A stretch of 34,824 nucleotides of DNA from sequence record ON470606. One strand, 5' to 3'. The notes below the pieces were generated by a model, which saw only the letters and a program-made list of their open reading frames with translations, did no database searches and was not told the DNA's origin. This DNA comes from Escherichia phage vB_EcoM-720R8. The position numbers were made by a program, and so were the translations under genes. This document shows, piece after piece, positions 5,553-28,318 of this stretch. Each line of letters opens with the position of its first letter. Within the stretch, counting starts at the first letter, position 1.

Positions 5553-6743
5553 TTAATTGCTGTTAACCGAGGTGACCAGACTTGCCAGGTATCTTGAAGT
5601 AATACGCTGGCGCAGGGTCAGGTTTTCGAGAGGAGGCACCGGTGTATAGTCGTAGTCGATATACAGTTTTCCGGCCTTGAGGGTTTCCGCATCGTTGGCT
5701 TCTTCACTGAACCAGCATGTGCCATCCACGATATAACCGTTGTTTTTCAGTTCGCGGAATTTGGCATTGATGCCATCAATGATGTCGCGAATCAGCGTTG
5801 CGGTGATGGGCTTATCAATAGCCCACATGTGCGCCTCAGCCATCGTGTCGGCCAGTACCTGCGCGGTACGTGTGTAGCTTTCAAAGAGGAAAAGTGGGTC
5901 ATCGGAGCAGGTACGGTTACCCCAGAAACGGAAACCGTCGCGGCGAACCAGCGTTGTGACGCCTGCCTCGTTCAGCAGGTCAGCATCAGTGCCAGACTTC
6001 TGCAAATCCCAGAATACAGATGCGCTGATGCCGGTAACACCGTTTACCCCGACGTTGGACAGCGTTTTATGCCAGCCCTGCTCCTGGTCGATTTTGGCAC
6101 GCAGCCCCAGCGCACGGGCGGTGGCATACGCGGTGGCGGTGGTACTGGTGACCGTATCCCATGCAAGGAAATCCGGCCAGATGACCATCAGCTCACGCTG
6201 ACTGAAATTCTGACGGTAGGCTTTTGCCTCGGAAATGGTTTTACAGCCCCATGCGCTGATATACCCGAAGGCATTCAGTTCCTGGCATACCGATGCCAGT
6301 GCAACCGCCACCTCTTTGGTGTCCAGTCCCGGTACGCCGAGAATGCGCGGTTTAACGCCGGTAACCGACTCTGCGCCCATCAGGGCTTTCAGTCCGGTGT
6401 ACTGACCGTTTTCGTCAGTGGTGCCGATGATATTGGAAACGGTCTGCGCGAGTTTCGTTTCTTCGTCGTCGCCGGTGCCGTCTTCCACGCGCACGACAAC
6501 GGTGACCGGTTTTGACTGGTCAGCGATGGCCTGCAACGATGCCGCCAGCGTGCCTTTTTTACCGGCCTTTGCAATCGCGCTCTGCACATTGGTGATCAGC
6601 ACCGGTTTATTGACGGGGAAGGTTTCCGCATCCGCATCGCTGGCCGTGCAGACCATGCCAACAATGGCGGTGGATACGGTGGAAATGACGCGGGTGCCGT
6701 CGTTAATCTCCAGCACCTGCACGCCGTGATGATAGTCACTCAT
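5553..6743 (-). CDS. FI: Contractile tail sheath protein FI
   Basis: 396-aa ORF, ATG at 6741..6743, first gene of the FI-FII-E-T-U-D block. Confidence 0.9.
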   Translation of the reverse strand: MSDYHHGVQVLEINDGTRVISTVSTAIVGMVCTASDADAETFPVNKPVLITNVQSAIAKAGKKGTLAASLQAIADQSKPVTVVVRVEDGTGDDEETKLAQTVSNIIGTTDENGQYTGLKALMGAESVTGVKPRILGVPGLDTKEVAVALASVCQELNAFGYISAWGCKTISEAKAYRQNFSQRELMVIWPDFLAWDTVTSTTATAYATARALGLRAKIDQEQGWHKTLSNVGVNGVTGISASVFWDLQKSGTDADLLNEAGVTTLVRRDGFRFWGNRTCSDDPLFLFESYTRTAQVLADTMAEAHMWAIDKPITATLIRDIIDGINAKFRELKNNGYIVDGTCWFSEEANDAETLKAGKLYIDYDYTPVPPLENLTLRQRITSRYLASLVTSVNSN

Positions 6744-6841
6744 CCGTTTAACTCCGTGGTTAATGGGTGCAACTATTTTCTGTTGTGCAGAGCATGAGAC
6801 GCTATTTGACCTGGCTGGTCAGTGGATGAAACAACAGATAC

Positions 6842-6864
6842 AAAAAAGCGGGCAATTCGCCCGC
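6842..6864 (-). terminator. Rho-independent terminator separating the upstream tail-fibre/cargo transcript from the FI operon
   Basis: Minus strand reads GGGCG-AATT-GCCCGC followed by TTTTTT (plus-strand A-run 6842..6847). Confidence 0.6.
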
Positions 6865-6886
6865 CAGTCCTTCCACGGTGACGTGT

Positions 6887-6927
6887 TCATACTCAAATCT
6901 CCTGCAATGTGAGAGATTTGAGTATGA
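6887..6927. repeat. 41-bp perfect inverted repeat (15-bp arms TCATACTCAAATCTC / GAGATTTGAGTATGA, 11-bp spacer)
   Basis: Read directly; lies between the cargo gene stop (7018) and the terminator at 6842..6864. Confidence 0.9.
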
Positions 6928-7017
6928 TTGACCCTAATGAGCGATAAGCGAACATTTTCCTCCAGTCTGGTACAGATATAAAATTACATGGTGCAGTTAA
7001 CACTGATACTTACAGTG

Positions 7018-8139
7018 TTAACTTGGTAATAAAGATTGCCACCACTTATTCAAAATGGAATGGGTCATAAAGTTGAATGTATTTAAATTAATTGGCACAT
7101 CTTCATTCAACCACGTTCCACCTAAGGTTGAACATGCTCTCGCTCGTTCAGCAATATACCCATCCCATACTTCAGGATAGGAACACATCGGCTCAGGAAA
7201 TGGTTGTCCTCCATGCAATGCCTTAGAACGGTAGTTATATATTTTTTTAAAAGTTGTTGATAGCGATTCTTTTCCCCAATCAATTCTTCCTACTTTTGGC
7301 CTCACTTGAGGTTCATCTGGAAGGAAATACAGGCAGAAATCCACAAACTTCTTTGTCGCCCCAAATGAATCTTTAAACTCATTAGCAATAATAGAGATTA
7401 AATGTCTAAATTCATTGGTATCTAATTTTTCATATAATTCAGGCTTGGCATGTTTAAATCTTTCTTCTTTAGACGCATTGGATTTTGCCCATTGATTAGC
7501 CGCACATTCTAGGGCTGACACCATCAATAGCCAACTCATATTTGGAGATGACTCGCATATCCATAATGCATTTTGATAGCTTCTGGCTGCTCTAATTAAA
7601 TGGTTGAAATTCTTTTCACTTAAGAGATGTAAATTGTTAAGCTCTTTAAGGTTAGTTATATCAATTTCTTTGATAGCATTAGGAACTATAGGTTTGTTAT
7701 GTTTAAACTCTAAAACGGGAGGAAAAGAACTCTCCGCTTGGATCCTTCCGAAATCACCTGTGTAGTAATCATAGTGACGAGTAATTGACCCAGCATGAAA
7801 ACGGACACCAAGCAGTAAACTTGAAAGCGCAGCTATTTCATCATTATACCATCCACCATGATAATCCTTTGTATGACTCTGAGAACTAGAAAGAATCATA
7901 TTATTTAAGTCACTATACCACTTTGTGCGCACTGTAATTGAAGATGCAACGGTGGATTGTTTGGTTATCCTGGGTAGCATATTCAGAAAACAATAAACTG
8001 AATCATCATCAACCGCCCCAATTGGTTGACTATCTGAATAGAGAGAAAACTCAGTAATAGACCGTAAGTTACTTCCTTGATGTGCCATCTTTAAGTTTTT
8101 GTAAGACAGTAGACTTGCATACATATGATTATTGGGCAT
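7018..8139 (-). CDS. Hypothetical protein, AT-rich accessory (moron) gene at the P2 Z/fun hotspot between G and FI; candidate anti-phage or exclusion function
   Basis: Long uninterrupted ORF in a visibly AT-rich segment flanked by GC-richer phage genes; same orientation as the late genes. The ORF track starts at a GTG (8145); the first ATG is at 8139. No motif I recognise. Confidence 0.6.
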   Translation of the reverse strand: MPNNHMYASLLSYKNLKMAHQGSNLRSITEFSLYSDSQPIGAVDDDSVYCFLNMLPRITKQSTVASSITVRTKWYSDLNNMILSSSQSHTKDYHGGWYNDEIAALSSLLLGVRFHAGSITRHYDYYTGDFGRIQAESSFPPVLEFKHNKPIVPNAIKEIDITNLKELNNLHLLSEKNFNHLIRAARSYQNALWICESSPNMSWLLMVSALECAANQWAKSNASKEERFKHAKPELYEKLDTNEFRHLISIIANEFKDSFGATKKFVDFCLYFLPDEPQVRPKVGRIDWGKESLSTTFKKIYNYRSKALHGGQPFPEPMCSYPEVWDGYIAERARACSTLGGTWLNEDVPINLNTFNFMTHSILNKWWQSLLPS

Positions 8140-8357
8140 TTTCACTAGATAAAATTTTAGTAGATAGTAGGAGAGAATCTAAAGGATTGTGTTTATAAAC
8201 GCAAACAGTTGAGGACTCATTCCCCACAAGTGAGCAGCTCCCCACAGATTTATGCAGATAGATGGCAACAATGTCCGCTCCTAGCACAGAGCGGACTGTC
8301 AGATTAGGCTTTACTCTGTGCCATAGATATGTAAGCTCCCACCAGAGCTCATACAAC

Positions 8358-8885
8358 TTATTGCGGCATTTCCGGCCATTCAGGATTTGCAGGATCCACA
8401 CGACTGACCAGAACGCTGTAGCGTTCCCATGCTTCCAGTCGACTGCGCTCCTCATCTGTTGCCATATTCAGCCTGACAGCGCGCTCCAGCGGCAAAATCA
8501 CGGATTCGGTTTCGGAAAGTAACGCGGCCTTTTGTGATTCTGCCTGTTGTTGCTGTTCGTCTGCCGTATAAATCCGCTTAATCACGGCACCATCCTTAAA
8601 CATCCATTTACCTGAGTCATCAGCACGTCGGTTGGCGGTAATATCAGGAACCTCGACAACGCTAAAACCTTCAGGGTTGAGCGTTGAAGCATCTCTGGTG
8701 ATGCCGACAATTATATTATTCTCGTCGTAAACAATCTTTATCGTGTCTTCCTGAAAATTACTTACTTCCTCATACCAGTTTTTTCCCTCTTCGGACCATA
8801 ACCAGATAACATCAAAATTTTTTGTCAGTTGATATTGGGCAACAGTTTTTGGATTACCCGCAGTAATATTTTTTAAATGCTGCAT
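8358..8885 (-). CDS. G: Tail fibre assembly protein G
   Basis: 175-aa ORF immediately downstream of H, ATG at 8883..8885. Confidence 0.85.
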
Positions 8886-8888
8886 AAA

Positions 8889-11624
8889 TTACACCTGTGC
8901 GACGTTATACCATGTGCCATTGATGTATTTTTGTATTGGTCTGAATACTGCGGGGTCATCACCATCGACTTCACCGACAATACCAAGCCCGGTAATTACG
9001 TGCCCTGCTTTCTCATACACCACCCCTTTCTGCATGGTCTGGACAACACGTGTGCCAAGTCTGACATCTCTCACATAGCGGGAATCAAAGTTACCGTAAT
9101 CCGAGGGATTAACACGCCCCGTAATATTTATGGTTTTATTACTTTGAACGCTTCCGGAGACAAAGCGCATAACATGGACGCTATTAGCATAAACATCCAG
9201 ATTACCATCACCATTTTGTTTAAAGCCCGTGTCATTATCACCCAAAACAATCGAATTACCGCCAAGAGCACTGGATGTTCCTATACCCAGAGCACCATTC
9301 AATTGACCACCAGATAACGGCAGTGCACCGACATCTCCCGCTGTAGGTTTTCGCGTTGTGGTATAAAACTCAGACCAGTCAGCCTCGAATCCGTAACCGT
9401 CACGAGCAGAACGATAAAAAATACCACCGTTCTTATAATTAACGCGAAACTGGGCGGCGGGACAACTTCCTTCACCGATATTAAAATGAAGAATTAACGT
9501 TGATGCCCCACCAATAGTTGCGTTATAGGCTCCGCTACTCCAGTTCCATCCAACGGCTTTATCATTCGCAACGGTGTCTCCTGTTTTTCCTGAAGCAAAT
9601 GCACCAATATTTTTCGGCGTCAGGTTAATATCTGATGTTCCATCAAACGAAACGTTATTAATTTTACGGGCTGTTTTCAGCTTTGTTGCTGTCGCCGCAT
9701 TGCCGGACAGTTCACCAGAAAGGCCAGCACTGAATGTCTGTTTCGCGCCCCATGTCTGGGCTTCGTCAATGATTGGTACTCGTCTTGTTGTGATCGTGCG
9801 GCTTCCCGGATTTCCTGAAATGCGCACCATAAAAAAGCGGTAGTTGGCTTTACTTACAGTGCTGCGCCATACATGCATTGAGCGCCCCGTACCGGAATCA
9901 TCACTCGGACCAACTGCGATGTTTATCAGGTTGCCATCAATGACGCCCCAGTCCATACCGTCGGGAATGTTGGTCATATTATCAAGCCGAACGGTTATCA
10001 GACTGCCCGGCACAAAATCGTAGGTCTGCCAGTCCAGAATGGATAGTTTTGCCACTGCGCCACCGATGCCCAGATTCAGAGGCAACGAAAAGGAGTTATA
10101 TACTTCTCGCCATTCGGTCCATTTGCTCCCGGCGTAGACGCGCTCAAAAGTGCGTCCCTGTGTGGTTTCTGATTTCCCTGTGGTTGTGTAACGCTGCCAG
10201 ACAGACACACCATCAAAACGTCTGATTACTTCCAGTATCCCAAGTAGTGTCGCGCCAACGGTGTCCAGCATCGGACCGTTTGTTGCCTTTCCTGTAACAC
10301 TGTAAATACCGGGGTCGGTTAGAACATTTAAATCACCTTCGTAATAACGACTCTCTGACTGATGACCGACTCTTAACCACGGTTCCCACTGCGGATTTGA
10401 TGCATCCCAGCTTGCCGCAAGGCAGCGGACATACATATTTCCACTGCGAGTGGTATAACGTTGCGTTCTTCCATAATTCCCGCCTTCGAGGATCTCAAGC
10501 GTCCCCTGAGCAAAGCCGCCTTCCTCTGGATAATTGCGTTCATATGAAGCTATAGCCGAACTACTGTTACGCCATAAACCAAGATGTTCGGCGGCTCCAA
10601 GCGTATTCAGGTCTATAGTCGTACTCAAAGGGCGGGTAGCTGATTGAGTGTGACGCCATACGCCCCACGGACCATCAGTGCCATTCCACTTATTGGCGAG
10701 TTTACGCATGTATACATTGCCGTCTCTCGTGATAAAGCGTTGCGTGCCTGCAAAATTGCCGGCAGCAAAAACCTCAAGCACACCGACAGCATTATCTTCC
10801 GGGAAATTTTTCTCCAGTGTTGCGTTAGTTGAGGTAGCTTTAGACCAGATCCCCAGATAAGCCTTAACTGGACCAAATGTATTCAGATCAGCATCAACCG
10901 GCATTTCGCCGTTGTTTTTCATAAACGTCAGGCTGGTAACGCCAACATTGTCCAGAAAAGCTGATTTATCCTGGATATCTGCACCATTCTGATTTTTCGC
11001 CAGACGTGAATTTGCGTTGTCATTCGCAGCCTTGACCGCTTTTGGCGTTGCCGCCAGTTTTTCACTGGTGCTGTTTGTTGCGCTGCTTAACTGGGTAAAA
11101 CCTTTTTCTGTCAGCGTGGCGTCAGGATGGCGGCGGGACTGCTCATGTTCTGCGATTTTGTCATCGACGTAATCCTGCGTCGCCATCACTGTGCTGGCAT
11201 CAATACTCAGCTCCACAGACGCCACGTTACTGACAATAATAACCATGCGGCAGGTCTGCGCACGCCCGGAGCCTTCAGCGAGTTCAGGCTTATAGCTTTC
11301 TGCCATGTTGGCGACCGCAATCAGTGTTCCGGCATCGTCATACAGACCAAGCTCACGCATCCAGAATCCGCCCACTTCGGGCGGTACAACCAGTTCAGCC
11401 ACGATATAGTTTTTATTCTTGTTATCCACGCTGACTTTATTCAGAGCGTGACGCCAGACCTCATGCACCAGTTTCGTCTGACCGGCATCCGGCACCGGCA
11501 ATTTGCCATTACCGTCACCCACGGCCATTGCAGACAGGGTTACTTTTTTCCCGCCGGGGACAGTGGCGGCTGCCAGCTTTGCGGCTCCGGCAGTAGTGAT
11601 AACGGTTTTAAATTTCGTGCTCAT
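8889..11624 (-). CDS. H: Tail fibre protein H (911 aa, longer than the P2 H I recall; mosaic distal part)
   Basis: N-terminus MSTKFKTVITTAGAAKLAAA...; Gly/Ser/Thr-rich repeats typical of fibres; 3' half noticeably more AT-rich than the 5' part. Confidence 0.85.
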   Translation of the reverse strand: MSTKFKTVITTAGAAKLAAATVPGGKKVTLSAMAVGDGNGKLPVPDAGQTKLVHEVWRHALNKVSVDNKNKNYIVAELVVPPEVGGFWMRELGLYDDAGTLIAVANMAESYKPELAEGSGRAQTCRMVIIVSNVASVELSIDASTVMATQDYVDDKIAEHEQSRRHPDATLTEKGFTQLSSATNSTSEKLAATPKAVKAANDNANSRLAKNQNGADIQDKSAFLDNVGVTSLTFMKNNGEMPVDADLNTFGPVKAYLGIWSKATSTNATLEKNFPEDNAVGVLEVFAAGNFAGTQRFITRDGNVYMRKLANKWNGTDGPWGVWRHTQSATRPLSTTIDLNTLGAAEHLGLWRNSSSAIASYERNYPEEGGFAQGTLEILEGGNYGRTQRYTTRSGNMYVRCLAASWDASNPQWEPWLRVGHQSESRYYEGDLNVLTDPGIYSVTGKATNGPMLDTVGATLLGILEVIRRFDGVSVWQRYTTTGKSETTQGRTFERVYAGSKWTEWREVYNSFSLPLNLGIGGAVAKLSILDWQTYDFVPGSLITVRLDNMTNIPDGMDWGVIDGNLINIAVGPSDDSGTGRSMHVWRSTVSKANYRFFMVRISGNPGSRTITTRRVPIIDEAQTWGAKQTFSAGLSGELSGNAATATKLKTARKINNVSFDGTSDINLTPKNIGAFASGKTGDTVANDKAVGWNWSSGAYNATIGGASTLILHFNIGEGSCPAAQFRVNYKNGGIFYRSARDGYGFEADWSEFYTTTRKPTAGDVGALPLSGGQLNGALGIGTSSALGGNSIVLGDNDTGFKQNGDGNLDVYANSVHVMRFVSGSVQSNKTINITGRVNPSDYGNFDSRYVRDVRLGTRVVQTMQKGVVYEKAGHVITGLGIVGEVDGDDPAVFRPIQKYINGTWYNVAQV

Positions 11625-15570: not shown

Positions 15571-15983
15571 GGTTCCCGCCCCTCAAAACGCTGACGGCAG
15601 GCCGTACGTATCAGCCGGAAAAACAGCGACGCCACAAGATAAATCAGCGCGGTAAAAATCCACCCGGCAGCGACCAGCGAGATAAACGTCACCACCATCA
15701 CCACCAGACCCACCGCCCGTCTGCACCACGGCACCGGCAGCAAAATCAGCGACGTGACAATCTTCACGGCCAGCGATTCCGGCGGCAGCTCCCGTCCGTA
15801 GCGTTCCAGTACATACTCCGTGGCATACACGCCGACACCGCCGGCAACCACACAGATAACCGTCGCCAGAATCGCCCAGGCGACGACAAAATTGACGGCC
15901 ACGCTCTGCGGGTAAATCAGGGACAGTGCCAGCATCAGCGCCAGCGACACGTTCAGCATCAGTGAAAGGGATAATTTCTTCAT
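15558..15983 (-). CDS. lysA: LysA, membrane lysis-timing protein
   Basis: 141-aa ORF with several hydrophobic helices, between K and lysB. Confidence 0.8.
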   Translation of the reverse strand: MKKLSLSLMLNVSLALMLALSLIYPQSVAVNFVVAWAILATVICVVAGGVGVYATEYVLERYGRELPPESLAVKIVTSLILLPVPWCRRAVGLVVMVVTFISLVAAGWIFTALIYLVASLFFRLIRTACRQRFEGREPCQS

Positions 15984-15997
15984 GGTGTTTACTCCGT

Positions 15998-16495
15998 TTA
16001 AGCCGGTACGCCGCCAGCGGTACGCCAGACGGTGACCAGTTTTTCCAGTGAATGCTCACGCTGACCGTAACCGGCTCCCGGCAGGGACGCCCAGATATTG
16101 CGACAGCGTGAAATGGCGCGCTCAATACGTCCCGCCCGGATGTCATCCAGCGCACCGCGTTCGCGGATCAACTGAATGGCGAGTCTGTCCTGTGACAACG
16201 GACTGAAATCCGGCAGGGCAAGCTGTTTGCGGTAATGCGGCCAGAACAGGTAAAGCTGCTGATAGCGACCGGAGGCCGTGGATTTTTCACCGCGACGGTT
16301 AAACACCTTCGCCGGTCGGCCATGCGCGAACGGGTGGTCACTGTAGTCGGTGAAAATTTCCGGCTTCCCGTCCAGTCCGGTGACTATCACGTCATAGCCC
16401 CGGTTTTTCGTCAGCGGATGATTCGCCGTCCCTTCGGACACGGCCAGCATGTCGAGAAAGGCGGCGATATTCTGATGCGTGTTAATTACCGGCAT
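15998..16495 (-). CDS. K: Endolysin K (lysozyme-type)
   Basis: 165-aa ORF immediately after the holin gene; ATG at 16493..16495. Confidence 0.85.
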   Translation of the reverse strand: MPVINTHQNIAAFLDMLAVSEGTANHPLTKNRGYDVIVTGLDGKPEIFTDYSDHPFAHGRPAKVFNRRGEKSTASGRYQQLYLFWPHYRKQLALPDFSPLSQDRLAIQLIRERGALDDIRAGRIERAISRCRNIWASLPGAGYGQREHSLEKLVTVWRTAGGVPA

Positions 16496-16776
16496 TACGG
16501 TTTCCCCCTGCCCTTAAAGCGGCGCTGAATGGCAATCTCAATCACCTGATAACCGGCGATACCCAGCATGGAGCCGATGCCGCACACCGCAGGCAGTGAC
16601 AGGTCAGGAAACTGCACCAGAACAACACCGGCAACCATCGAGACAAAACCACCGAGCAACATGCGCCCGATAAACAGACGCGGGGTGATGGGTTCACCAC
16701 CGGCAAGCACCTTGCCGACAACAATCAGCACCCCAATCATGAAAAGCGACAGGACGCTTTTTTCTTCTGCTGTCAT
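16495..16776 (-). CDS. Y: Holin Y
   Basis: 93-aa ORF with hydrophobic transmembrane segments and a basic C-terminus (RRFKGRGKP). Confidence 0.85.
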   Translation of the reverse strand: MTAEEKSVLSLFMIGVLIVVGKVLAGGEPITPRLFIGRMLLGGFVSMVAGVVLVQFPDLSLPAVCGIGSMLGIAGYQVIEIAIQRRFKGRGKP

Positions 16777-16779
16777 GCG

Positions 16780-16983
16780 TTACTCCCACAGATTGACAGT
16801 TTCAGCCACGGGCGCGGTCTGAACGTCGGGCAGTTCGACGGCGGTGCCGTGTGGCAGCACCGCACCCAGTTCAGCCAGTCCCGGATTTGCGGCGAGCACG
16901 GTCTCAACCACGCCCTCAGTGCGCCCGTAATACCGGACACAAATGGCGTCGAGCGTGTCGCCCTGTAGCGCAAAGGTCTTCAT
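16780..16983 (-). CDS. X: Tail protein X
   Basis: 67-aa product from the internal ATG (MKTFALQGDTLDAICVRYYG...); the ORF-track entry begins 23 codons earlier. Confidence 0.75.
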   Translation of the reverse strand: MKTFALQGDTLDAICVRYYGRTEGVVETVLAANPGLAELGAVLPHGTAVELPDVQTAPVAETVNLWE

Positions 16984-17492
16984 CAGATTTGACTCACGAT
17001 GCAGCGCGGCTTGTCCTGGATACGCGCCACCGCCCAGCGCATATCCCGCCAAAGTTCATCAATGGTGCTGTCAATGCTGTCAGCCTTCTTGTCGCCTTTC
17101 GCACTGGCATCCACGCCGCGATAACGCTCATAAAGCGACGCGGTCGCCATCGCACACACGGCGCGCTCGTAGTAAAAAACTTTGATGCTTTCACCGTCGA
17201 TGTCGTCCGCCGGAACGTCCGCCAGACGCGTAAAACCGGCGGCAATTTTCTGTTCGCGGTACTCGTACAGCTCCGCATTCGTCTCCGCCATGCCTGACTT
17301 GATGGCCTCACGCAGACGGGCGGGGGCGACGGTCTGCTCAAGGCGCATACGTTCCCGGACGCGCTTCGGGTCGATATCGGGAAAAAAGAACGTGTTTTTA
17401 ATCACCGGCTCGTCGCCTGCCGGTTGCGGGATGACCACCGTACCCTCACCGGACACGGGAGCCTCCTTTCGCGGAATAATCAGCGTCATCAT
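16983..17492 (-). CDS. L: Capsid completion protein L
   Basis: 169-aa product from the ATG at 17490..17492 (MMTLIIPRKE...); the ORF-track entry begins 20 codons upstream. Confidence 0.8.
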   Translation of the reverse strand: MMTLIIPRKEAPVSGEGTVVIPQPAGDEPVIKNTFFFPDIDPKRVRERMRLEQTVAPARLREAIKSGMAETNAELYEYREQKIAAGFTRLADVPADDIDGESIKVFYYERAVCAMATASLYERYRGVDASAKGDKKADSIDSTIDELWRDMRWAVARIQDKPRCIVSQI

Positions 17493-20488: not shown

Positions 20489-22261
20489 ATGACCATCACC
20501 ACAGACACCACTCTTTTACACGACCCGCGTCGTCAGGCGGCGCTGCTGTACTGGCAGGGGTTTTCCGTGCCGCAGATTGCCGCCATGTTGCAGATGAAAC
20601 GCCCGACGGTGCAGAGCTGGAAACAGCGCGACGGCTGGGACAGCGTTGCCCCCATCAGCCGTGTCGAAATGAGTCTGGAAGCGCGGCTGACCCAGCTCAT
20701 CATCAAACCGCAGAAAACCGGCGGTGACTTCAAGGAAATTGACCTGCTGGGACGCCAGATTGAACGACTGGCACGGGTAAACCGTTACAGTCAGACCGGC
20801 AACGAGGCAGACCTTAATCCGAACGTCGCTAACCGCAACAAAGGCGGGCGTCGCAAACCGAAAAAGAATTTTTTCAGTGACGAGGCCATCGAAAAGCTGG
20901 AGCAGATTTTCTTTGAGCAGTCTTTCGAATATCAGTTGCACTGGTATCGCGCCGGGCTTGAGCACCGCATCCGCGATATCCTGAAATCCCGCCAGATTGG
21001 CGCGACGTTTTATTTTTCCCGCGAGGCGCTGCTGCGCGCCCTGAAAACCGGCCATAACCAGATTTTTCTGTCGGCCAGTAAAACGCAGGCGTATGTGTTC
21101 CGCGAATACATCATCGCCTTTGCCCGGCTGGTTGACGTTGACCTGACCGGTGACCCGATTGTCCTGGGCAATAACGGCGCAAAACTGATTTTTCTCGGCA
21201 CCAACTCCAACACCGCGCAGAGCCATAACGGCGACCTGTACGTCGACGAGATTTTCTGGATCCCGAATTTTCAGGTACTGCGTAAGGTGGCATCAGGTAT
21301 GGCCTCACAGAGTCACCTGCGCTCGACCTATTTCTCCACCCCGTCCACGCTGGCGCACGACGCCTACCCGTTCTGGTCTGGTGAGCTGTTTAACCGGGGA
21401 CGCGCCAGCGCCGCTGAACGCGTGGAAATCGACGTCAGTCATAACGCCCTTGCCGGTGGGCTTCTCTGTGCGGACGGTCAGTGGCGGCAGATTGTCACCA
21501 TTGAGGACGCGCTGAAAGGCGGCTGCACGCTGTTCGACATTGAGCAGCTCAAACGTGAAAACAGCGCCGACGATTTTAAAAACCTGTTCATGTGTGAATT
21601 TGTTGACGACAAGGCGTCGGTGTTCCCGTTCGAGGAGCTGCAACGCTGCATGGTCGACACGCTGGAAGAATGGGAAGACTATGCGCCGTTTGCTGCCAAT
21701 CCGTTCGGCTCCCGCCCGGTATGGATTGGTTACGACCCGTCACACCGTGGCGACAGCGCCGGATGTGTGGTACTGGCACCGCCGGTGGTGGCCGGTGGCA
21801 AATTCAGAATACTTGAGCGTCACCAGTGGAAAGGCATGGACTTTGCCACTCAGGCGGAATCCATCCGCAAACTCACCGAAAAATACAACGTCGAATACAT
21901 CGGTATTGATGCCACCGGCCTCGGTGTCGGCGTGTTCCAGCTCGTGCGCTCGTTCTATCCCGCCGCGCGCGATATCCGCTACACGCCGGAAATGAAAACC
22001 GCAATGGTGCTCAAGGCAAAAGACGTTATCCGCCGTGGCTGTCTGGAATATGACGTCAGCGCCACCGACATCACCAGCTCGTTTATGGCTATCCGAAAGA
22101 CCATGACCAGCAGCGGACGCAGCGCCACCTATGAGGCCAGTCGCAGCGAGGAAGCCAGCCACGCCGACCTCGCCTGGGCGACCATGCACGCCCTGTTAAA
22201 TGAGCCACTCACCGCCGGTATCAGCACTCCGCTGACATCCACCATTCTGGAGTTTTACTGA
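20489..22261 (+). CDS. P: Terminase large (ATPase) subunit P
   Basis: 590-aa product from the ATG at 20489; the ORF-track entry starts at a TTG ten codons upstream. Stop overlaps the Q start (TGATG). Confidence 0.85.
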   Translation: MTITTDTTLLHDPRRQAALLYWQGFSVPQIAAMLQMKRPTVQSWKQRDGWDSVAPISRVEMSLEARLTQLIIKPQKTGGDFKEIDLLGRQIERLARVNRYSQTGNEADLNPNVANRNKGGRRKPKKNFFSDEAIEKLEQIFFEQSFEYQLHWYRAGLEHRIRDILKSRQIGATFYFSREALLRALKTGHNQIFLSASKTQAYVFREYIIAFARLVDVDLTGDPIVLGNNGAKLIFLGTNSNTAQSHNGDLYVDEIFWIPNFQVLRKVASGMASQSHLRSTYFSTPSTLAHDAYPFWSGELFNRGRASAAERVEIDVSHNALAGGLLCADGQWRQIVTIEDALKGGCTLFDIEQLKRENSADDFKNLFMCEFVDDKASVFPFEELQRCMVDTLEEWEDYAPFAANPFGSRPVWIGYDPSHRGDSAGCVVLAPPVVAGGKFRILERHQWKGMDFATQAESIRKLTEKYNVEYIGIDATGLGVGVFQLVRSFYPAARDIRYTPEMKTAMVLKAKDVIRRGCLEYDVSATDITSSFMAIRKTMTSSGRSATYEASRSEEASHADLAWATMHALLNEPLTAGISTPLTSTILEFY

Positions 22262-23295
22262 TGAGCAAGAAAAAAGGGAAAACACCGCGACCTGCGGCAA
22301 AAACAATCACCGCCAGCGCCCCGAAAATGGAGGCATTCACCTTTGGTGAGCCGGTGCCGGTACTCGACCGGCGTGACATTCTGGATTACGTCGAGTGCAT
22401 CAGTAACGGCAGATGGTATGAGCCACCGGTCAGCTTTACCGGTCTGGCAAAAAGCCTGCGTGCCGCCGTGCATCACAGCTCCCCGATTTACGTCAAACGC
22501 AATATTCTGGCCTCGACATTTATCCCGCATCCGTGGCTTTCCCAGCAGGATTTCAGCCGCTTTGTGCTGGATTTTCTGGTGTTCGGTAATGCGTTTCTGG
22601 AAAAGCGATACAGCACCACCGGTAAGGTCATCAGACTGGAAACCTCACCGGCCAAATATACCCGTCGTGGCGTGGAGGAGGATGTTTACTGGTGGGTGCC
22701 GTCCTTCAACGAGCCGACAGCCTTCGCGCCCGGCTCCGTGTTTCACCTGCTGGAGCCTGATATTAATCAGGAGCTGTACGGCCTGCCGGAATATCTCAGC
22801 GCCCTTAACTCTGCCTGGCTGAATGAGTCGGCCACGCTGTTCCGCCGCAAGTATTACGAAAACGGCGCTCATGCCGGATACATCATGTACGTCACCGATG
22901 CCGTGCAGGACCGCAACGATATCGAAATGCTTCGCGAAAACATGGTTAAGTCAAAAGGCCGCAATAACTTTAAAAATCTGTTTCTCTATGCCCCGCAGGG
23001 GAAAGCCGACGGCATTAAAATTATCCCGCTCAGTGAAGTGGCAACGAAGGACGATTTTTTTAATATCAAAAAAGCCAGCGCCGCTGACCTGCTGGACGCG
23101 CATCGCATCCCCTTTCAGTTGATGGGAGGCAAGCCGGAGAACGTCGGGTCGCTGGGTGATATTGAGAAAGTGGCAAAGGTCTTTGTCCGCAATGAGCTTA
23201 TCCCGTTACAGGACAGGATTCGGGAAATAAACGGCTGGCTCGGTCAGGAGGTCATCCGCTTTAAAAACTACTCACTGAACACTGACAACGACTGA
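22261..23295 (+). CDS. Q: Portal protein Q
   Basis: 344-aa ORF, ATG at 22261, translationally coupled to P. Confidence 0.9.
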   Translation: MSKKKGKTPRPAAKTITASAPKMEAFTFGEPVPVLDRRDILDYVECISNGRWYEPPVSFTGLAKSLRAAVHHSSPIYVKRNILASTFIPHPWLSQQDFSRFVLDFLVFGNAFLEKRYSTTGKVIRLETSPAKYTRRGVEEDVYWWVPSFNEPTAFAPGSVFHLLEPDINQELYGLPEYLSALNSAWLNESATLFRRKYYENGAHAGYIMYVTDAVQDRNDIEMLRENMVKSKGRNNFKNLFLYAPQGKADGIKIIPLSEVATKDDFFNIKKASAADLLDAHRIPFQLMGGKPENVGSLGDIEKVAKVFVRNELIPLQDRIREINGWLGQEVIRFKNYSLNTDND

Positions 23296-23300
23296 ACATT

Positions 23301-23322
23301 GCCGCCTGCGGGCGGCTTTTTT
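23301..23322 (+). terminator. Rho-independent terminator after Q
   Basis: GCCGCC-TGCG-GGCGGC hairpin followed by TTTTTT, 6 nt after the Q stop. Confidence 0.65.
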
Positions 23323-23464
23323 ACATCCCGTCATCACGCCCTCACACGCTCACCACCGCACAAAACACCCCGCAAACACACCAACGCCCCGGCGCACAAT
23401 CTAAACGCCGTCACGACGCGCTCAGACGCTGAAAAAATAAAATCAGCACCACCGCCAGCGCGCA

Positions 23465-23483
23465 GTGCTTTCCCCGCCTCGCC
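23465..23483. other. cos site (19-nt cohesive-end sequence, reverse complement of GGCGAGGCGGGGAAAGCAC)
   Basis: Exact match to the P2 cohesive-end sequence as I recall it; sits between Q and the tin/old-position cargo as expected. A 40-N gap follows at 23499..23538. Confidence 0.7.
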
Positions 23484-23751
23484 CGCCCGCTTCATGGGNN
23501 NNNNNNNNNNNNNNNNNNNNNNNNNNNNNNNNNNNNNNTGCAGTTACATAGATACTATGGATCCGCACCAGTCCTGACCGCACGCAGCCTGAACGGACAT
23601 CCCCGACGCATGCAAAAACATTCACTTGTTGCATGCAACGGCTTATTTAATGACAAATCAACTTAAATTTACAAAATCCACAGGTATGGATACTTTGCGA
23701 ACATGATAGGCTTACGAGAATTATCGTGCCTGTTTTTGAACGGAGAAAGTT

Positions 23752-24693
23752 ATGCAAGGTGAAGTTGACGAACAGCAACCAAATGAGATTATTTCGGAGT
23801 TTGGATACTATCCAGTAGAAGTTAACATTGAGACTGAACAATTTTCTTTGCGTACTTTACCCGGTCTTATTGAGAAAGTGGAACGTATTAACAATGATAA
23901 AAACGTTGTTAATGGTTGGATATACCCTGGGAATCGAAAGGTATATAACCTTAATGGTGACACATGCACAATGCCTTATAGTTACCGAGTATTCGGCATG
24001 CCCAAAACGCACACACTAAAATTAAAAAACACATCCTCGTTAGAAACTCTCAACTTTGTTGTGTGGTGCCTCTCTTTTTTCAAGGGTATAAGATTGACAA
24101 CCACTGACGCTGGTTTTCTTGATGCAACCACTATCAAGCCCACTAAGTTAACCGACTTTATTCTCGTTGGATGCTCTGAAAAAGAAGTAATAGAGCTAGC
24201 ACTTAACTATATAAAAGACAAACAAAAAGATGATCGCTCCATTAAAAGAATAGCTGCGGTGATACACTCCCTATTCCTGTCACATAACCCACTATACCTT
24301 TCCTTTGAGAAATTCCAGTATCTTTATATGGCTCTTGATTGCTGTTTTGCTATAGCATGGGATGAAAGGGATAAAGTCATTAAAGAGAAAAAACCATCTC
24401 ATCAAAATAGAGTATATTGGACGTGCGAAAATTACGGTGTAAAAATCCCGTCATGGGCAACAGATGAATGTAATGTTTCAGTTATACGCAATGATAATTT
24501 TCATGAAGCCATTTTTAATGGGCAACCGCTTGGTTTCTCTAGTATCAATGATTGTCAATATGGTAGCGATATATTGCTACAAATGCAGGCTCTGGTATGT
24601 CGTCTACTAGCGGCAATACTCTCTGTAAATGATCGTAAATATATCGCATCTACAATCAGCTCGATAGAGTACCATTCATTAAAATTAACTTAA
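23752..24693 (+). CDS. Hypothetical protein (313 aa), AT-rich accessory gene next to cos at the P2 old/tin hotspot; candidate defence or exclusion gene
   Basis: ATG at 23752 preceded by GGAG at 23742..23745; AT-rich; no Walker A motif, so not an OLD-family ATPase; no family recognised. Confidence 0.6.
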   Translation: MQGEVDEQQPNEIISEFGYYPVEVNIETEQFSLRTLPGLIEKVERINNDKNVVNGWIYPGNRKVYNLNGDTCTMPYSYRVFGMPKTHTLKLKNTSSLETLNFVVWCLSFFKGIRLTTTDAGFLDATTIKPTKLTDFILVGCSEKEVIELALNYIKDKQKDDRSIKRIAAVIHSLFLSHNPLYLSFEKFQYLYMALDCCFAIAWDERDKVIKEKKPSHQNRVYWTCENYGVKIPSWATDECNVSVIRNDNFHEAIFNGQPLGFSSINDCQYGSDILLQMQALVCRLLAAILSVNDRKYIASTISSIEYHSLKLT

Positions 24694-25012
24694 TGCTAAC
24701 GCCTCACTTCGCTCGTTGTTCAACCCCGCCAGCCTGAAAACAAGTTTCACGACTGGCGGCGTTCTCTATCGTCTGCGTGGTGGTGGCGCAACTCTGGACT
24801 GACCGATATAGTTAAACCGCCCGTAATTATCCCGGACTATTTCGGCACACCCGACCAGCTCGTCAGGCGTCAGATTTTCGTTGACCATAATCTGCTGTAA
24901 ACGGTGAACAATGGCCATCAACCTGACACTTTTGGTGTTATATGTGGTATCTCACATGAGATTACTGACCAAGGTGCATCTTGGTTGACTCATTTCATAT
25001 CCATCCACACCA

Positions 25013-25693
25013 CTACATCTTTATTGCATATTTATTAAAAGACGCCCAGTTCAATAAAAAAACATTATTCATATACCATTCAATATGATTTTTATTTTTA
25101 GATTGACTGTCAAGTAGCACACAAACATCAACCTGTTTATCAATCAATTTTGCAATATAAACCACAAACTCAACACTCGAATATCTCTTTGTGCCTAGCA
25201 AATATAATATTTCATCTGACAAATAATTAGACTCATGTGAAAAGACATTATCATTTAACAAAATCAACCCGCCAATCGAGTCATTTAAATCCAAAACATC
25301 CTTTGTTGCATTTATTTGCTTATTAGCTTCCTTAACTATCTTTGTTTTAATATTTTCATAAGCAAAGTTCATTATATCATTTCTAAATCGCTTTGAGTCT
25401 GGGTGTCTTTTTATCAACTCTTCTAAATGAATAGCACCATGCCAGTTTTTTGCAAGCCAACTATCAGTTTTAACCAACTCATTCAGTTTATCATTGACAT
25501 TCTTGACCCTGTCAGAAAAAAGACTTTTCATCTCCAAAATTATCTTTTTATTATCAATAAGATAATCTGCCATCTTGCGATTCTGACCATCCTTCATCCG
25601 GAACTTATGATGAATATCATCAATAGAAATCCCTTTTTCATGCTCAACAATGAATCTCTTAACATTGTTTTCTAATTCGCTGTATTGTTTCAT
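25013..25693 (-). CDS. Hypothetical protein (226 aa), AT-rich accessory gene at the P2 tin position; candidate defence or exclusion gene
   Basis: ATG at 25691..25693 with a purine-rich stretch upstream; 27 nt downstream of the DUF2158-like ORF on the same strand; no family recognised. Confidence 0.6.
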   Translation of the reverse strand: MKQYSELENNVKRFIVEHEKGISIDDIHHKFRMKDGQNRKMADYLIDNKKIILEMKSLFSDRVKNVNDKLNELVKTDSWLAKNWHGAIHLEELIKRHPDSKRFRNDIMNFAYENIKTKIVKEANKQINATKDVLDLNDSIGGLILLNDNVFSHESNYLSDEILYLLGTKRYSSVEFVVYIAKLIDKQVDVCVLLDSQSKNKNHIEWYMNNVFLLNWASFNKYAIKM

Positions 25694-25720
25694 ACTTTCC
25701 CCCGTGAATTTTATTATGAT

Positions 25721-25912
25721 TCACTTACGTGGACGACACAGCATACCACTTTTACTCTCTGCTATTTCCAGTAAATCAATGGAGAATGACTCCTCGTGCA
25801 AAACTCCTTCTTTATCATGCCAAATACATTTCGCATGAGTTTCAGTAGAGTCAGATACAGTCATTTTAAATCCACCGCTTTTCAAACAAACAACATCTGC
25901 AGGCTTTAACAT
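25721..25912 (-). CDS. Small DUF2158 / YodC-like protein (63 aa from the internal ATG)
   Basis: MLKPADVVCLKSGGFKMTVSDS...CIWHDKEG... fits the LKSGGP-MTV signature I associate with DUF2158; GGAGA sits 5 nt before the ATG at 25910..25912. The ORF-track entry runs to 25996. Confidence 0.55.
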   Translation of the reverse strand: MLKPADVVCLKSGGFKMTVSDSTETHAKCIWHDKEGVLHEESFSIDLLEIAESKSGMLCRPRK

Positions 25913-26038
25913 TTTTGTCTCCAACATTTTTAAGTAATGCATTATAACATAATGATATTGACGTAGATTTAATGCATGCAACCATATAAAAAACAATCAA
26001 TTACAGTCAAAACTACTTATACTGTATAGATGAGATCC

Positions 26039-28318
26039 TTACTCAAATTGATGCCAGAATCCCGACCACTCATCAGCGACCGGATACGTGAATTTTTTCC
26101 CGTCATAATTTACGGTCGCGCCACGCGCCAGCGCCTCAAGCTCCCATCGCTGCGGCCTGATACCGTTCTGAGCAAGGTCAACGCGGATACGGGTGATTTG
26201 CAATCGTTCAGACCGGGTCAGTCTGGCCGATGGCGCTATTTCATGTGGTTTTAACGGGCTTCCGTTTCTTTGCTGACGATTTGGTGTTTTCAGGCCGTGT
26301 TTTAATGCACCCCTGAGCGTCCTCACGACCTCCGGGTCATTCCATTCGATAACACCGTCATCAACCAGATTTAGCACTGCTGCGGCGTGTTCAGAAGGTG
26401 TGGGAGCCGGTAACGAAGTATCACCACCGGTGAGCTTTCCACAGTTATTGACAGGACTCCGAGGCGCGGCGATGCCGCTTTTTAAAGTCAAAGGCTCAAC
26501 GACCGGAACTTTCGGCACAATGCGCCAGTCCGTCGTTCTGGTGATATGAATATGACGCGCGCCGAGATGCGGCGCGTAAATGCCGACCACTCTCTCGACT
26601 TCTTCCTCGTACTCGTTAACGTCATCCGACGGGCTACGGGCGACTCTGACAGTCTGACAATCGCGCGGGACATTTGCCCCACCCTGCGCGCTGATATACA
26701 ACGCAAAATCACCACTGTCTGCGGCGGCGCGTGCAGCCTCGACGCGCTCGTCAAACTCATCAGCAATGCTGACGCCGCGCGGCAATTTGCGTAGTTCACG
26801 GTAAGCCCCCATTGTCGGCAGGCCAACCGTTTTAAATTGCGGGATGCGCCACGTTGACGCCCATGCGGTAACAGCCGCTGCAGTGTCTTTCAGCGGCCTG
26901 CCGGTGTCGTTATCGAGCTGACCATCCAGTGCATAGCCGTCGATGTTTTTTGAAATGTATTTCGCGATATATCCCGCAGCACCGCCCCGGTTAAGGTGTT
27001 TTGCCTGAAAACGGTTTCGCGCGGCTCCTCTTTCGTCACCATCCTCTTTGAGCGCATAGCGACGCATGATTTCGATAATCTGGTTACGCTGGCGTGGATT
27101 ACAAAAAAGCATCATATGCCAGTGCGGCGTTCCGTCGTGGTGTGGCTCGACGACACGCAAACCGTAGACCTGTAAATCATTATCCTTGAATGCCGTGCGC
27201 ATCAGGCTCCAGATGCGGCAGAGATAACGCTGCGCATCCTTTGGATTAAATGCCTCATCGTTCCAGCCGTGATTAAGCTGAACGGTTTTACTTTCGCCTT
27301 TTCTGACCTGACGAGTCGGGTGATACTTTGACGGCGCGGTCAGCGTGATAAACATCCCCACATCACCCTCTGCGGCGGCGTAACGCTCAATACCGGCAAT
27401 GGTGTTCATCAGCTCCATCCGGCGAATTTCAGGATTAGAAATACTGCCCATCACCTTACTGATAAGGTCGATGCGCTCGCCGGTTTCCCTGTTTTCAAGG
27501 TCACACGATTTAAGAAATTCCAGATTTGCCTGGCGGCGCGCACGCACATCACGAATGGCGTGTTTACTGGCATAAGGAGAACGGTCTTTATTGACCTCCC
27601 CGACAGCTATCAGTAACGCTTCATGCCAGCGCATACGCTGGCCTTTAAGCTGATGAGTCCACCACTCATCGTTAAACAGACGGGCAATGGCAGAATATGC
27701 CTGCCTCGTGGTCATCTGCCCTTTACGGTATTTTTTCCAGTAGAGCGGGGAAATATTGAAAGCACGTGCAGCGCCAGCAACATGACCATAGAGGTGAGCC
27801 TGCGCCTCATCCGTAAACAGCGATTCTTTTTCGCCATGCGCATCCACCCAGGCATCGCTGAGTTCCTCATACATCATGAAAAGCTGCGATGAGATACGGG
27901 CAGCAAACTTTTTCAGCTCCTTGTCATTCATTCCCGGCAGGCGCGCATAGTGGTCACGCTCTGCCAGAAACAGCAACGACGCGTCGGTGTTCATTTCATG
28001 GCGCTGATTCACGCGCTCAATGCGCGGCCATAAACGACGCTGAAAAGTGGATGTGAGGAAATAAAACCCGTGCACCGGGCTTTTATTGCGCCGGATGTAG
28101 TCATAGCGTGAAGTAAACAGCGAACGCAAAAAGTAAGGCAGGCGGTTAATCGTGGATAAAACACCTTGCACCTGACGCATCTCGTCACGTGTAAGGGGTC
28201 TTTCGCGCCCGACGGCCTCGCGTGGCGCGTTCCATGCATAAGCACCGGTAAACGCCTTACCGGTGCCTGCAGCAAATGCTGACGGAGGGACAAAACGCCC
28301 GGAGGCTTTAACGGCCAT
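26039..28318 (-). CDS. A: Replication initiation protein A (rolling-circle nickase)
   Basis: 759-aa product from the ATG at 28316..28318 (MAVKASGRFVPP...), which overlaps the upstream ORF stop; the ORF-track entry starts at a TTG 14 codons earlier. Confidence 0.85.
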   Translation of the reverse strand: MAVKASGRFVPPSAFAAGTGKAFTGAYAWNAPREAVGRERPLTRDEMRQVQGVLSTINRLPYFLRSLFTSRYDYIRRNKSPVHGFYFLTSTFQRRLWPRIERVNQRHEMNTDASLLFLAERDHYARLPGMNDKELKKFAARISSQLFMMYEELSDAWVDAHGEKESLFTDEAQAHLYGHVAGAARAFNISPLYWKKYRKGQMTTRQAYSAIARLFNDEWWTHQLKGQRMRWHEALLIAVGEVNKDRSPYASKHAIRDVRARRQANLEFLKSCDLENRETGERIDLISKVMGSISNPEIRRMELMNTIAGIERYAAAEGDVGMFITLTAPSKYHPTRQVRKGESKTVQLNHGWNDEAFNPKDAQRYLCRIWSLMRTAFKDNDLQVYGLRVVEPHHDGTPHWHMMLFCNPRQRNQIIEIMRRYALKEDGDERGAARNRFQAKHLNRGGAAGYIAKYISKNIDGYALDGQLDNDTGRPLKDTAAAVTAWASTWRIPQFKTVGLPTMGAYRELRKLPRGVSIADEFDERVEAARAAADSGDFALYISAQGGANVPRDCQTVRVARSPSDDVNEYEEEVERVVGIYAPHLGARHIHITRTTDWRIVPKVPVVEPLTLKSGIAAPRSPVNNCGKLTGGDTSLPAPTPSEHAAAVLNLVDDGVIEWNDPEVVRTLRGALKHGLKTPNRQQRNGSPLKPHEIAPSARLTRSERLQITRIRVDLAQNGIRPQRWELEALARGATVNYDGKKFTYPVADEWSGFWHQFE

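Follow-up and report, generated by a model that had tools for sequence, protein, structure and literature searches.

The slot between genes G and FI in the P2-like phage vB_EcoM-720R8 (record ON470606; the window analysed is the whole stretch of 34,824 nucleotides) is occupied by a single AT-rich gene. This gene belongs to the mobile cargo of the P2 G/FI (Z/fun) hotspot and encodes a protein of two domains. The C-terminal half is predicted from its fold to be a HEPN ribonuclease-type domain. From this fold and the genomic context, we infer ribonuclease activity, oligomerization, a substrate, a trigger and an anti-phage phenotype; the gene probably encodes a stand-alone, trigger-activated HEPN ribonuclease that acts as an abortive-infection protein.

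Mobile cargo in the G/FI slot

The slot is filled by one open reading frame with a GTG start, and the ORF list contains no second frame within 6872-8265 (Table 1). The GC fraction across 6850-8350 is 0.34-0.41 (about 0.36), compared with 0.52-0.59 (about 0.55) in the sheath gene and 0.45-0.52 in G/H, and so the ORF list and the GC profile agree with the original prediction of one long frame in an AT-rich segment between GC-richer tail genes. A BLAST alignment with the P2-EC30 Z-region record AJ512676 shows backbone matches at 6714-6871 (92%) and 8266-8387 (95%) and none in between; in this comparison, homology to other P2-like phages ends at 6871 and restarts at 8266. Of 5426 E. coli genomes searched, 1584 match the flanks of the slot, and only 5 of these contain the cargo gene; in other P2-like phages, the same slot holds other genes. 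The gene thus lies between G and FI in a position whose content varies while its flanks are conserved, and it is not fixed there. These borders, the low frequency and the differing alleles bear out the proposal of horizontally acquired cargo in a variable slot, which has already been named as a hotspot (bioRxiv 10.1101/2024.10.15.618418; PMC13586616).

When the protein was searched by tblastn against 50,697 phage records, only seven Yersinia P2-like phage records were retrieved, at 99.7% identity, and P2 itself gave no match. The slot's prototype cargo, P2 Z/fun, occupies the identical G-FI position and is likewise accessory and dispensable for P2 growth, but it is not homologous to the 375-residue protein. 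Z/fun reportedly interferes with phage T5. A protein in a second hotspot of the window (23752..24693) showed no homology to the cargo family or to ApeA.

The start codon, which had been flagged as ambiguous, is indeed treated differently in public records, where four starts yield 375, 373, 368 and 356 residues. The RefSeq start, ATG 8088 (356 residues), removes a predicted helix (13-22) and the conserved residue N17, which is kept in 211 of 230 relatives; consequently, the true start is one of the three upstream codons.

Table 1. Positions of the cargo gene, its encoded domains and the flanking elements in the window
Feature	Position	Strand	Basis or remark
FI, tail sheath gene	5553..6743	-	RefSeq annotation of identical locus
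Intrinsic terminator, stem 6847-6865 then T-run	6839..6865	-	Terminator scan
Allele-specific cargo segment of the slot	6872..8265	.	BLAST against P2-EC30 Z-region record AJ512676
41-bp palindrome, perfect 15-nt inverted repeat with 11-nt loop	6887..6927	-	Repeat scan and folding
Perfect 11-nt inverted repeat across the stop codon	6995..7023	-	Repeat scan and folding
Cargo gene, two-domain 375-residue protein	7018..8145	-	ORF list; 99 homologous clusters; 1892 representatives; AF2
Predicted C-terminal HEPN-type domain, residues about 163-375	7021..7659	-	AF2 model
Rx4H motif R306-S-K-A-L-H311, end of helix 3	7213..7230	-	Read from sequence
E213 codon, conserved acidic residue of HEPN helix 2	7507..7509	-	230/230 relatives; helix 201-223
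N-terminal alpha/beta domain, residues 1-160	7666..8145	-	Proposed sensor or regulatory domain
Possible starts of the cargo gene	GTG 8145, ATG 8139, ATG 8124	-	ATG 8088 (RefSeq) too short
Candidate sigma70 promoter TTTAGA-18-TAAAAT, weak	8154..8183	-	Consensus scan, 9/12 matches
Backbone hairpin GTCCGC-N12-GCGGAC	8273..8296	-	Just past G stop codon
G, tail-fibre assembly gene	8358..8885	-	RefSeq annotation of identical locus
H	8889..11624	-	RefSeq annotation of identical locus

Flanking DNA elements

Three hairpins lie 3' of the cargo frame, in a region that folds far better than shuffled sequence (z = -4.8). The downstream terminator of the original prediction is present on the minus strand, where the scan returned three overlapping terminator-like calls against 1.1 expected. 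It falls within the segment common to P2-EC30 and, judged by this alignment, belongs to the conserved P2 backbone and not to the cargo. The 41-bp palindrome that had also been reported does exist and lies inside the cargo; it lacks a T-run and is therefore probably a 3' stabilizing or termination hairpin. It was not found downstream of the Klebsiella homologue, nor in other alleles of the slot. A role as a recombination site was set aside, and the palindrome was treated as a cassette-specific 3' hairpin, since it is neither conserved nor shared. On the other side of the gene, the backbone hairpin is part of what the P2-EC30 Z-region record annotates as the 'left inverted repeat'.

The upstream sigma70-like motif (8183..8154), which ends 9 nt before GTG 8145, is present as had been described. 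Its standing as a promoter is another matter: five sigma70-like sites were found against 5.3 expected in shuffled sequence, and because this frequency does not exceed that of the shuffles, the motif is not evidence for a promoter. An RNA antitoxin or a riboswitch is unlikely, as the RNA checks revealed neither tandem repeats nor an Rfam match and folding of the leader was no more stable than that of shuffled sequence (z = -0.8).

Architecture of the protein and assignment of the HEPN domain

The AF2 model of the 375-residue protein has a pLDDT of 93 and a pTM of 0.91, and it separates a small N-terminal alpha/beta domain from a C-terminal helical domain. In the model, the four HEPN helices span residues 177-196 (H1), 201-223 (H2), 292-312 (H3) and 354-372 (H4), with a helical insert between H2 and H3 (224-291) and a short-stranded insert between H3 and H4 (313-353). 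The published definition of HEPN domains (Anantharaman et al. 2013, PMC3710099) places an Rx4H motif where H3 ends and an acidic residue within H2, with an insert keeping H2 and H3 apart. All three are found here: the RSKALH motif closes H3, Glu213 is located in H2, and the two helices are separated by the helical insert given above. Among 230 relatives, R306 is kept in 229, S307 in 228 and H311 in all 230. The residue following the arginine is polar and typically Asn, Asp or His in HEPN proteins (PMC3710099); Ser307 is polar, but outside this typical set. The statement in the original prediction that the protein has no defensible nuclease motif is therefore overturned by the invariant Rx4H motif in the predicted C-terminal domain. 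In addition, structural matches to the protein are strongly enriched in HEPN proteins; the best of these matches include HepT and other HEPN toxins from toxin-antitoxin systems.

The N-domain carries eight near-invariant charged or polar positions, namely E32, D38, R73, H96 (followed by Gly-Gly), D102-E103, R115 and R123. A search for structural relatives of the N-domain alone returned neither a confident relative nor a HEPN match.

Comparison with known HEPN systems

ApeA (Gao et al. 2020) resembles the cargo protein in being a single protein with a C-terminal HEPN domain, an Rx4H motif in helix 3, extra insertions and an N-terminal region that packs on the HEPN domain, and both occur in restriction-modification (R-M) operons and on mobile elements. 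By analogy, the two may also share their likely logic, in which a trigger-activated ribonuclease causes abortive infection. ApeA is said to consist of ApeA_NTD1 (PF18862) and HEPN_Apea (PF18739), and the ApeA relatives that were found (460-520 residues) all carry both. On the other hand, the cargo protein has 375 residues and two domains, whereas ApeA has about 460-580 residues and three domains (the residue numbering of the Ec2ApeA structure reaches at least 583). The N-domain of the cargo protein is a small alpha/beta fold and corresponds neither to ApeA_NTD1 nor to the N and Mid domains of ApeA; its motif reads RSxxxH instead of RNxxxH, and PF18739, PF18862 and the PADLOC ApeA models did not match it. 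Identity with ApeA was rejected by hhalign comparison of the family with an alignment of 32 bona fide ApeA proteins, seeded from the ApeA gene that adjoins a relative in locus L007, which gave a probability of 0.1-0.2 for the full length and for the HEPN halves. UniProt automatically labels some family members 'Apea-like HEPN domain-containing protein'; neither hhalign nor the HMM searches reproduced this label.

HepS, the 'HEPN solo' anticodon nuclease of Gifsy-1, is also a prophage-borne single-gene HEPN in an accessory slot with no conserved partner, and the expected logic may be alike as well: constitutive presence, auto-inhibition and switching on by a phage component. However, HepS is a bare HEPN of fewer than 250 residues with R100-H105 as its motif pair (PMC13043305), whereas the cargo protein adds a 160-residue N-domain and long insertions. 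Identity with HepS was rejected on this architecture, and a profile search of PDB chain sequences showed no similarity to it. DARNA (PD-T7-3) likewise combines, in a single protein, a HEPN domain with a second, non-catalytic domain, which senses the trigger, and tRNA is cut on activation (10.64898/2026.02.22.705581). In DARNA, however, the HEPN domain is N-terminal and the sensor is an all-helical, Pds5-like, ssDNA-sensing domain at the C-terminus; the reversed domain order and the lack of a PADLOC PD-T7-3 match exclude identity. Finally, PrrC and RloC are HEPN ribonucleases too, and one relative of the cargo protein (P0045) sits in a type I R-M locus, where PrrC is classically found (PMC3710099, Table 1), but the cargo family is much smaller in protein size, has no ABC-ATPase domain and shows no sequence similarity to them.

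Genomic company of the relatives and alternative roles

Several relatives lie beside defence genes. P0045 is located between hsdM/hsdS and an S-like fragment of its type I R-M locus, about 7 kb from an ApeA gene. Another relative shares a 4-bp overlap with an MmeI-type R-M gene, with an Mrr gene alongside; a third adjoins a type IIG R-M gene, an integrase and GmrSD; and a 97%-identical copy adjoins AbiGi and an integrase fragment. A 55%-identical relative occupies the tail-fibre slot of another P2-like prophage and adjoins a PIN_12 gene, and one further relative lies at a prophage edge. Across 80 genomes, most of the immediate neighbours have no connection with defence, and in at least one case the surroundings are entirely metabolic. 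No conserved partner gene emerged among 150 immediate neighbours of 80 loci, where the most frequent Pfam domain was ResIII (3/150) and a PADLOC scan gave only generic helicase-type matches in two to four proteins. This absence of a conserved neighbour, together with the lack of a second frame and of tandem-repeat RNA in the slot, is in line with the original reading of a single-gene unit.

The same neighbourhoods bear on whether the gene is instead a HEPN toxin or addiction module that stabilizes the prophage or island, through post-segregational killing or mobile-element competition, and is curbed by the N-domain or a host factor. In one clade, the gene stands in the toxin position, translationally coupled to an upstream Phd/YefM antitoxin gene by an ATGA overlap, and the pair occurs in three genomes; one relative also stands behind ParD with a ParE remnant, and the HepT-type structural matches point in the same direction. 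However, the Phd association represents a single evolutionary event, and the copy in the window, like most of the 80 loci, has no antitoxin-like neighbour and no ToxI-like repeat RNA. The adjacent, co-transcribed antitoxin that characterizes a type II system is confined to the Phd/YefM clade. Since toxin-antitoxin and abortive-infection roles overlap, a defence function would stay compatible even with the coupled arrangement. We therefore regard an addiction module as unlikely. The ParE match in relative P0021 was rejected as a fusion and is explained as a remnant, behind ParD, of gene calling or recombination; among ten longer relatives scanned for fusions, only one was found, with a C-terminal HHH_3 domain.

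A slightly smaller chance attaches to the reading that the C-terminal domain is something other than a catalytic HEPN, its R..H pair serving ligand or nucleic-acid binding or some other chemistry, so that the active centre, if any, would be the N-domain cluster. Profile methods detect no kinship here: Pfam gave no HEPN model match for the protein, 49 relatives or C-terminal fragments; NCBIfam, PHROG and PADLOC did not match the protein, with only noise in the HMM searches (Erf4, DUF1896); and a profile search of PDB sequences retrieved no HEPN protein, only a catalase at E = 1.3. There is thus no significant profile match to a described HEPN family. Against a non-catalytic domain stand the enrichment of HEPN proteins among the structural matches and the joint invariance of the arginine, the histidine and the helix-2 glutamate at canonical positions, which would be hard to obtain by chance.

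A benefit to the phage itself, in which the HEPN nuclease would act on host immune nucleotides (compare Csm6 HEPN and cyclic oligoadenylates) or on host RNAs during P2 lytic growth, is highly improbable. In its favour, Yersinia phages of the P2-like group that form plaques carry the gene, which lies directly downstream of the late tail operon, where no canonical terminator separates it from G and late read-through is possible, and HEPN domains that deplete cyclic oligoadenylate signals have been mentioned (10.64898/2026.02.22.705581). However, most members are chromosomal and are found in R-M operons, on small islands or in unrelated settings, across more than ten phyla and in archaea, and anti-defence genes occur in only 28 of 1511 P2 elements (NAR 2026 survey).

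Proposed mechanism and the family

A stand-alone abortive-infection ribonuclease remains the probable reading, and its mechanism may be outlined by analogy with single-protein HEPN defences that cleave tRNA in a trigger-dependent manner, namely ApeA (10.64898/2026.01.26.701840), DARNA (10.64898/2026.02.22.705581) and HepS (PMC13043305). The C-terminal domain would be a metal-independent ribonuclease, activated, as in other HEPN enzymes, probably when two Rx4H motifs (R306 and H311, helped by E213) meet in a dimer or higher oligomer. The N-domain, which packs tightly on the HEPN domain in the model and has its own invariant charged cluster, would keep the nuclease off in the lysogen and sense a sign of infection, which would be a phage protein or else a nucleic-acid or nucleotide ligand. 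Once a competing phage infects, the ribonuclease would cut cellular RNA; ApeA, DARNA, HepS and PrrC suggest, by analogy, that the anticodon loops of tRNA would be the most likely target, with mRNA as the alternative. Consequently, translation would halt, the infection would abort, and the lysogen population and its P2-like prophage would be protected.

The family comprises 1892 clusters at 50% identity, is mostly chromosomal rather than found in phage genomes, and, besides the bacterial phyla, includes two archaeal MAGs. It has no model in Pfam, NCBIfam, PHROG or PADLOC, and no paper covering it was found. The suggestion that the family may be new thus stands as far as curated models and papers are concerned and fails in that about 1900 clusters are already public, some with the UniProt HEPN label. 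With less confidence than the defence role itself, and falling somewhat short of an even chance, the cargo protein could be the founding member of an undescribed, widespread family of two-domain HEPN immune ribonucleases. Its N-domain would then be a new infection sensor or allosteric ligand pocket, with a trigger unlike the deoxydinucleotides of ApeA (10.64898/2026.01.26.701840), the SSB-presented ssDNA of DARNA (10.64898/2026.02.22.705581) and the tail-tip protein of HepS (PMC13043305).

HEPN nucleases that consist of a single protein are becoming recognized as a major class of abortive-infection systems carried by prophages, and each of those solved so far (ApeA, DARNA and HepS) senses infection differently. 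The present family is absent from the four model collections and is therefore overlooked by defence-annotation pipelines, which count a P2-like prophage with such a gene as lacking any known defence in the G/FI slot. Should no anti-phage phenotype appear, the family would still stand as a well-defined group of HEPN toxins, with a role on mobile elements to be explained. The E. coli/Yersinia allele is short, resides on a culturable phage and offers clear catalytically dead controls (R306A, H311A and E213A); it is thus an easy entry for testing the function of the family and for finding what its conserved N-domain recognizes.

HEPN domain of the cargo protein

An AlphaFold2 model of the window protein, built from a 49-sequence alignment, is very confident (pLDDT 93, pTM 0.91) and predicts an N-terminal alpha/beta domain (residues ~1-160) followed by a C-terminal helical domain (~163-375). 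On this model, the C-terminal domain is a HEPN domain, a fold defined by two alpha-hairpins, an H2-H3 insert, an Rx4-6H motif at the end of H3 and a conserved acidic residue in H2 (PMC3710099). The hairpins are formed by H1 (177-196) with H2 (201-223) and by H3 (292-312) with H4 (354-372); the H2-H3 insert is present, the motif R306-S-K-A-L-H311 (codons 7213-7230) ends H3, and the acidic residue of H2 is E213. H311 and E213 are conserved without exception in 230 full-length relatives that are only ~27-40% identical to the window protein, and R306 is conserved in 229 of them. The original prediction had found no nuclease motif, which this conservation shows to be incorrect. The same residues bear on a rival reading, in which the C-terminal domain would be a non-catalytic HEPN-like bundle and the chemistry would reside in the distinctive, invariant N-domain.

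The start codon, previously described as ambiguous, is indeed placed at four different positions in public records; the shortest version (RefSeq, 356 aa) is excluded by the conservation of N17 and by a predicted helix at residues 13-22.

Family size and distribution

The window protein has no real match in Pfam, NCBIfam, PHROGs or PADLOC, nor do 49 relatives and C-terminal fragments in Pfam. A word-indexed search recovered 99 homologous clusters, and the family profile, run against 1.84 billion proteins, retrieved 1892 representatives at E <= 1e-3, including 846 at <= 1e-30; nearly all of the best 150 are ~370-400 aa long and match end to end. Species-representative genomes yielded 80 loci, in Proteobacteria, Cyanobacteria, Planctomycetes, Acidobacteria, Actinobacteria, Chloroflexi, Spirochaetes, Deinococcales and others, as well as in two archaeal MAGs. 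One metagenomic relative (P0221, 461 aa) has a C-terminal HHH_3 domain (helix-hairpin-helix, ComEA-like, nucleic-acid-binding), the only fusion among 10 longer relatives scanned.

Cargo in the Z/fun slot

The window contains a P2-like prophage in which, as described from the sequence, one long AT-rich ORF separates the tail-fibre and sheath genes, with a GC content of 0.34-0.41 vs 0.52-0.59 in the sheath gene.

Features of the cargo locus, the second hotspot and the antitoxin-linked relatives
Feature	Position	Strand	Basis or note
FI (tail sheath)	5553..6743	-	ORF list; RefSeq annotation of identical E. coli locus
Canonical intrinsic terminator (stem; a T-run follows)	6847-6865	-	terminator scan
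Perfect 15-nt inverted repeat, 11-nt loop (41-bp palindrome)	6887-6927	-	inverted-repeat scan
Perfect 11-nt inverted repeat across stop codon	6995-7023	-	inverted-repeat scan
Cargo gene	7018..8145	-	sole long ORF between FI and G; 375 codons, GTG start
Sigma70-like site, 9/12 matches	8183..8154	-	consensus scan
GTCCGC-N12-GCGGAC hairpin	8273-8296		within backbone segment just after G
G (tail-fibre assembly)	8358..8885	-	ORF list; RefSeq annotation of identical E. coli locus
H (fibre gene)	8889..11624	-	ORF list; RefSeq annotation of identical E. coli locus
ORF, 313 aa	23752..24693	+	second hotspot
ORF, 226 aa	25013..25693	-	second hotspot
Phd/YefM and family gene cassette	L011 7708-9173		metagenome scaffold
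Phd/YefM and family gene cassette	L037 5621-7080		Latescibacterota MAG
Phd/YefM and family gene cassette	L041 5483-7077		Gemmatimonadetes MAG

The P2-EC30 'Z-region' (AJ512676) shares backbone homology with the window up to 6871 and again from 8266, with none between; this places the cargo at 6872..8265 and assigns the terminator to the P2 backbone. The flanks are matched in 1584 of 5426 complete E. coli genomes, only 5 of which have the cargo gene. It is also present, at 99.7% protein identity, in seven records of P2-like Yersinia phages, among them vB_YpM_22 and vB_YpM_50. Elsewhere in P2-like phages the slot contains DUF4145, a metal-binding protein, a phosphatase with NUDIX, orf44 and others. 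The gene is thus horizontally acquired cargo, as originally proposed, in a position already counted among P2's classical hotspots (bioRxiv 10.1101/2024.10.15.618418; PMC13586616).

Three hairpins lie 3' of the ORF on its strand, among them the predicted terminator and palindrome, and this region folds far better than shuffles (z = -4.8). The sigma70-like motif noted upstream does exist, but such sites are equally common in shuffled sequence.

The 'left inverted repeat' of the P2-EC30 annotation (2073-2185 of that record) has its counterpart in window 8266-8387, immediately past G. P2-EC30 also has a partial inverted copy at the FI-side end of its cargo: window 8276-8305 matches 243-214 there (83% over 30 nt, E = 0.009). 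The window's cargo showed no comparable inverted copy on its FI side. The repeat and its copy may serve as a recombination substrate for cargo exchange.

Genomic company of the family

Neither a second gene in the slot, nor tandem-repeat RNA at the cargo, nor an Rfam match was found, and among the 150 immediate neighbours at the 80 loci even the commonest family occurs in just 3. The protein therefore works alone, in keeping with the single-gene reading proposed earlier.

Neighbourhoods of the family are often mobile or defence-related. In Enterobacter, a 97%-identical copy is found in a small island away from any P2 prophage, with AbiGi and an integrase fragment as its neighbours. Another P2-like prophage has a 55%-identical relative between its tail-fibre and tail genes, adjacent to PIN_12, and a 73%-identical one lies at a Klebsiella prophage edge. 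Directly 3' of the latter (L002 9113-9160) is a tRNA 3'-end-like sequence (…GGTTCAAATCC…CCGACCA), presumably an att remnant at a prophage or island border. A 37%-identical relative lies inside a type I R-M operon (locus L007); ~7 kb away is a genuine ApeA gene (15901-17122; PF18862 and PF18739, motif RNHYVH), and this island also contains Vsr, Dcm and a HATPase/response-regulator pair. One more relative adjoins Mrr and has a 4-bp overlap with an MmeI-type R-M gene; another has integrase, type IIG R-M and GmrSD genes around it. Since the surroundings are wholly metabolic in at least one case and PADLOC matches among neighbours are few, the defence association is suggestive, short of overwhelming.

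In one clade (3 genomes), the family gene and a Phd/YefM antitoxin gene share an ATGA overlap. Identity across the three cassettes is 92-98% for Phd and 78-83% for the HEPN protein, which points to recent horizontal spread of this toxin-antitoxin-like version. The overlap argues that the protein is toxic when unrestrained. It also favours a rival reading, a toxin or addiction module, against which stands the solitary gene of the window. In Pectobacterium versatile (L008 7790-9332), a relative called as a 443-aa protein carries a ~68-residue N-terminal extension with a weak ParE_toxin match, overlapping a ParD antitoxin gene at its end; apparently, parE was replaced or cut short by the family gene. 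Its NCBI product name is RelE/ParE toxin.

Second hotspot

The other classical P2 hotspot (23300-26400), likewise AT-rich (GC 0.33-0.41), lies between portal gene Q (22261..23295) and gpA. Neither of its two ORFs matches Pfam or PADLOC. The 313-aa protein has an RNxxxH HEPN-like motif ('VIRNDNFHEA') near its C-terminus and, by hhalign, is unrelated to both the window protein family and ApeA; the prophage may thus encode a pair of distinct HEPN effector candidates. An intergenic run of masked or undetermined bases (N, ~23500-23545), directly behind the portal gene, appears as an X run in both translations. E. coli N21 (NZ_CM165899.1, 37152-38386) has the G/FI gene at 99.9% identity, and a Fic-family protein replaces the two Q-gpA ORFs; the two hotspots of otherwise similar prophages therefore swap independently.

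Proposed mechanism and implications

By every criterion tested, the window protein is distinct from ApeA, DARNA, HepS and Z/fun. It matches the known class of abortive-infection effectors that consist of a single HEPN protein and reside in prophage hotspots. Beside the observed fold, motif invariance, cargo status, solitary gene and genomic context, we infer an activity, a substrate, a trigger and a phenotype. The protein would be a stand-alone HEPN RNase, kept inactive by its N-domain and/or oligomeric state until a cue from heterologous-phage infection turns it on; it would then cut cellular RNA, with tRNA anticodon loops the likeliest target by analogy with ApeA, DARNA, HepS and PrrC, and this cleavage would abort the infection. 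On a rival reading, the gene would encode a phage counter-defence nuclease.

A HEPN gene in the Z/fun slot would be unsurprising to a specialist, because in other strains the slot contains DUF4145, another HEPN family (PMC3710099). We place the window protein in a HEPN family that is uncharacterised, very widespread and set apart by its N-domain. Because this family is large, is missing from all the defence databases searched and has an invariant N-domain that awaits explanation, it is well worth studying by experiment and should be easy to test.
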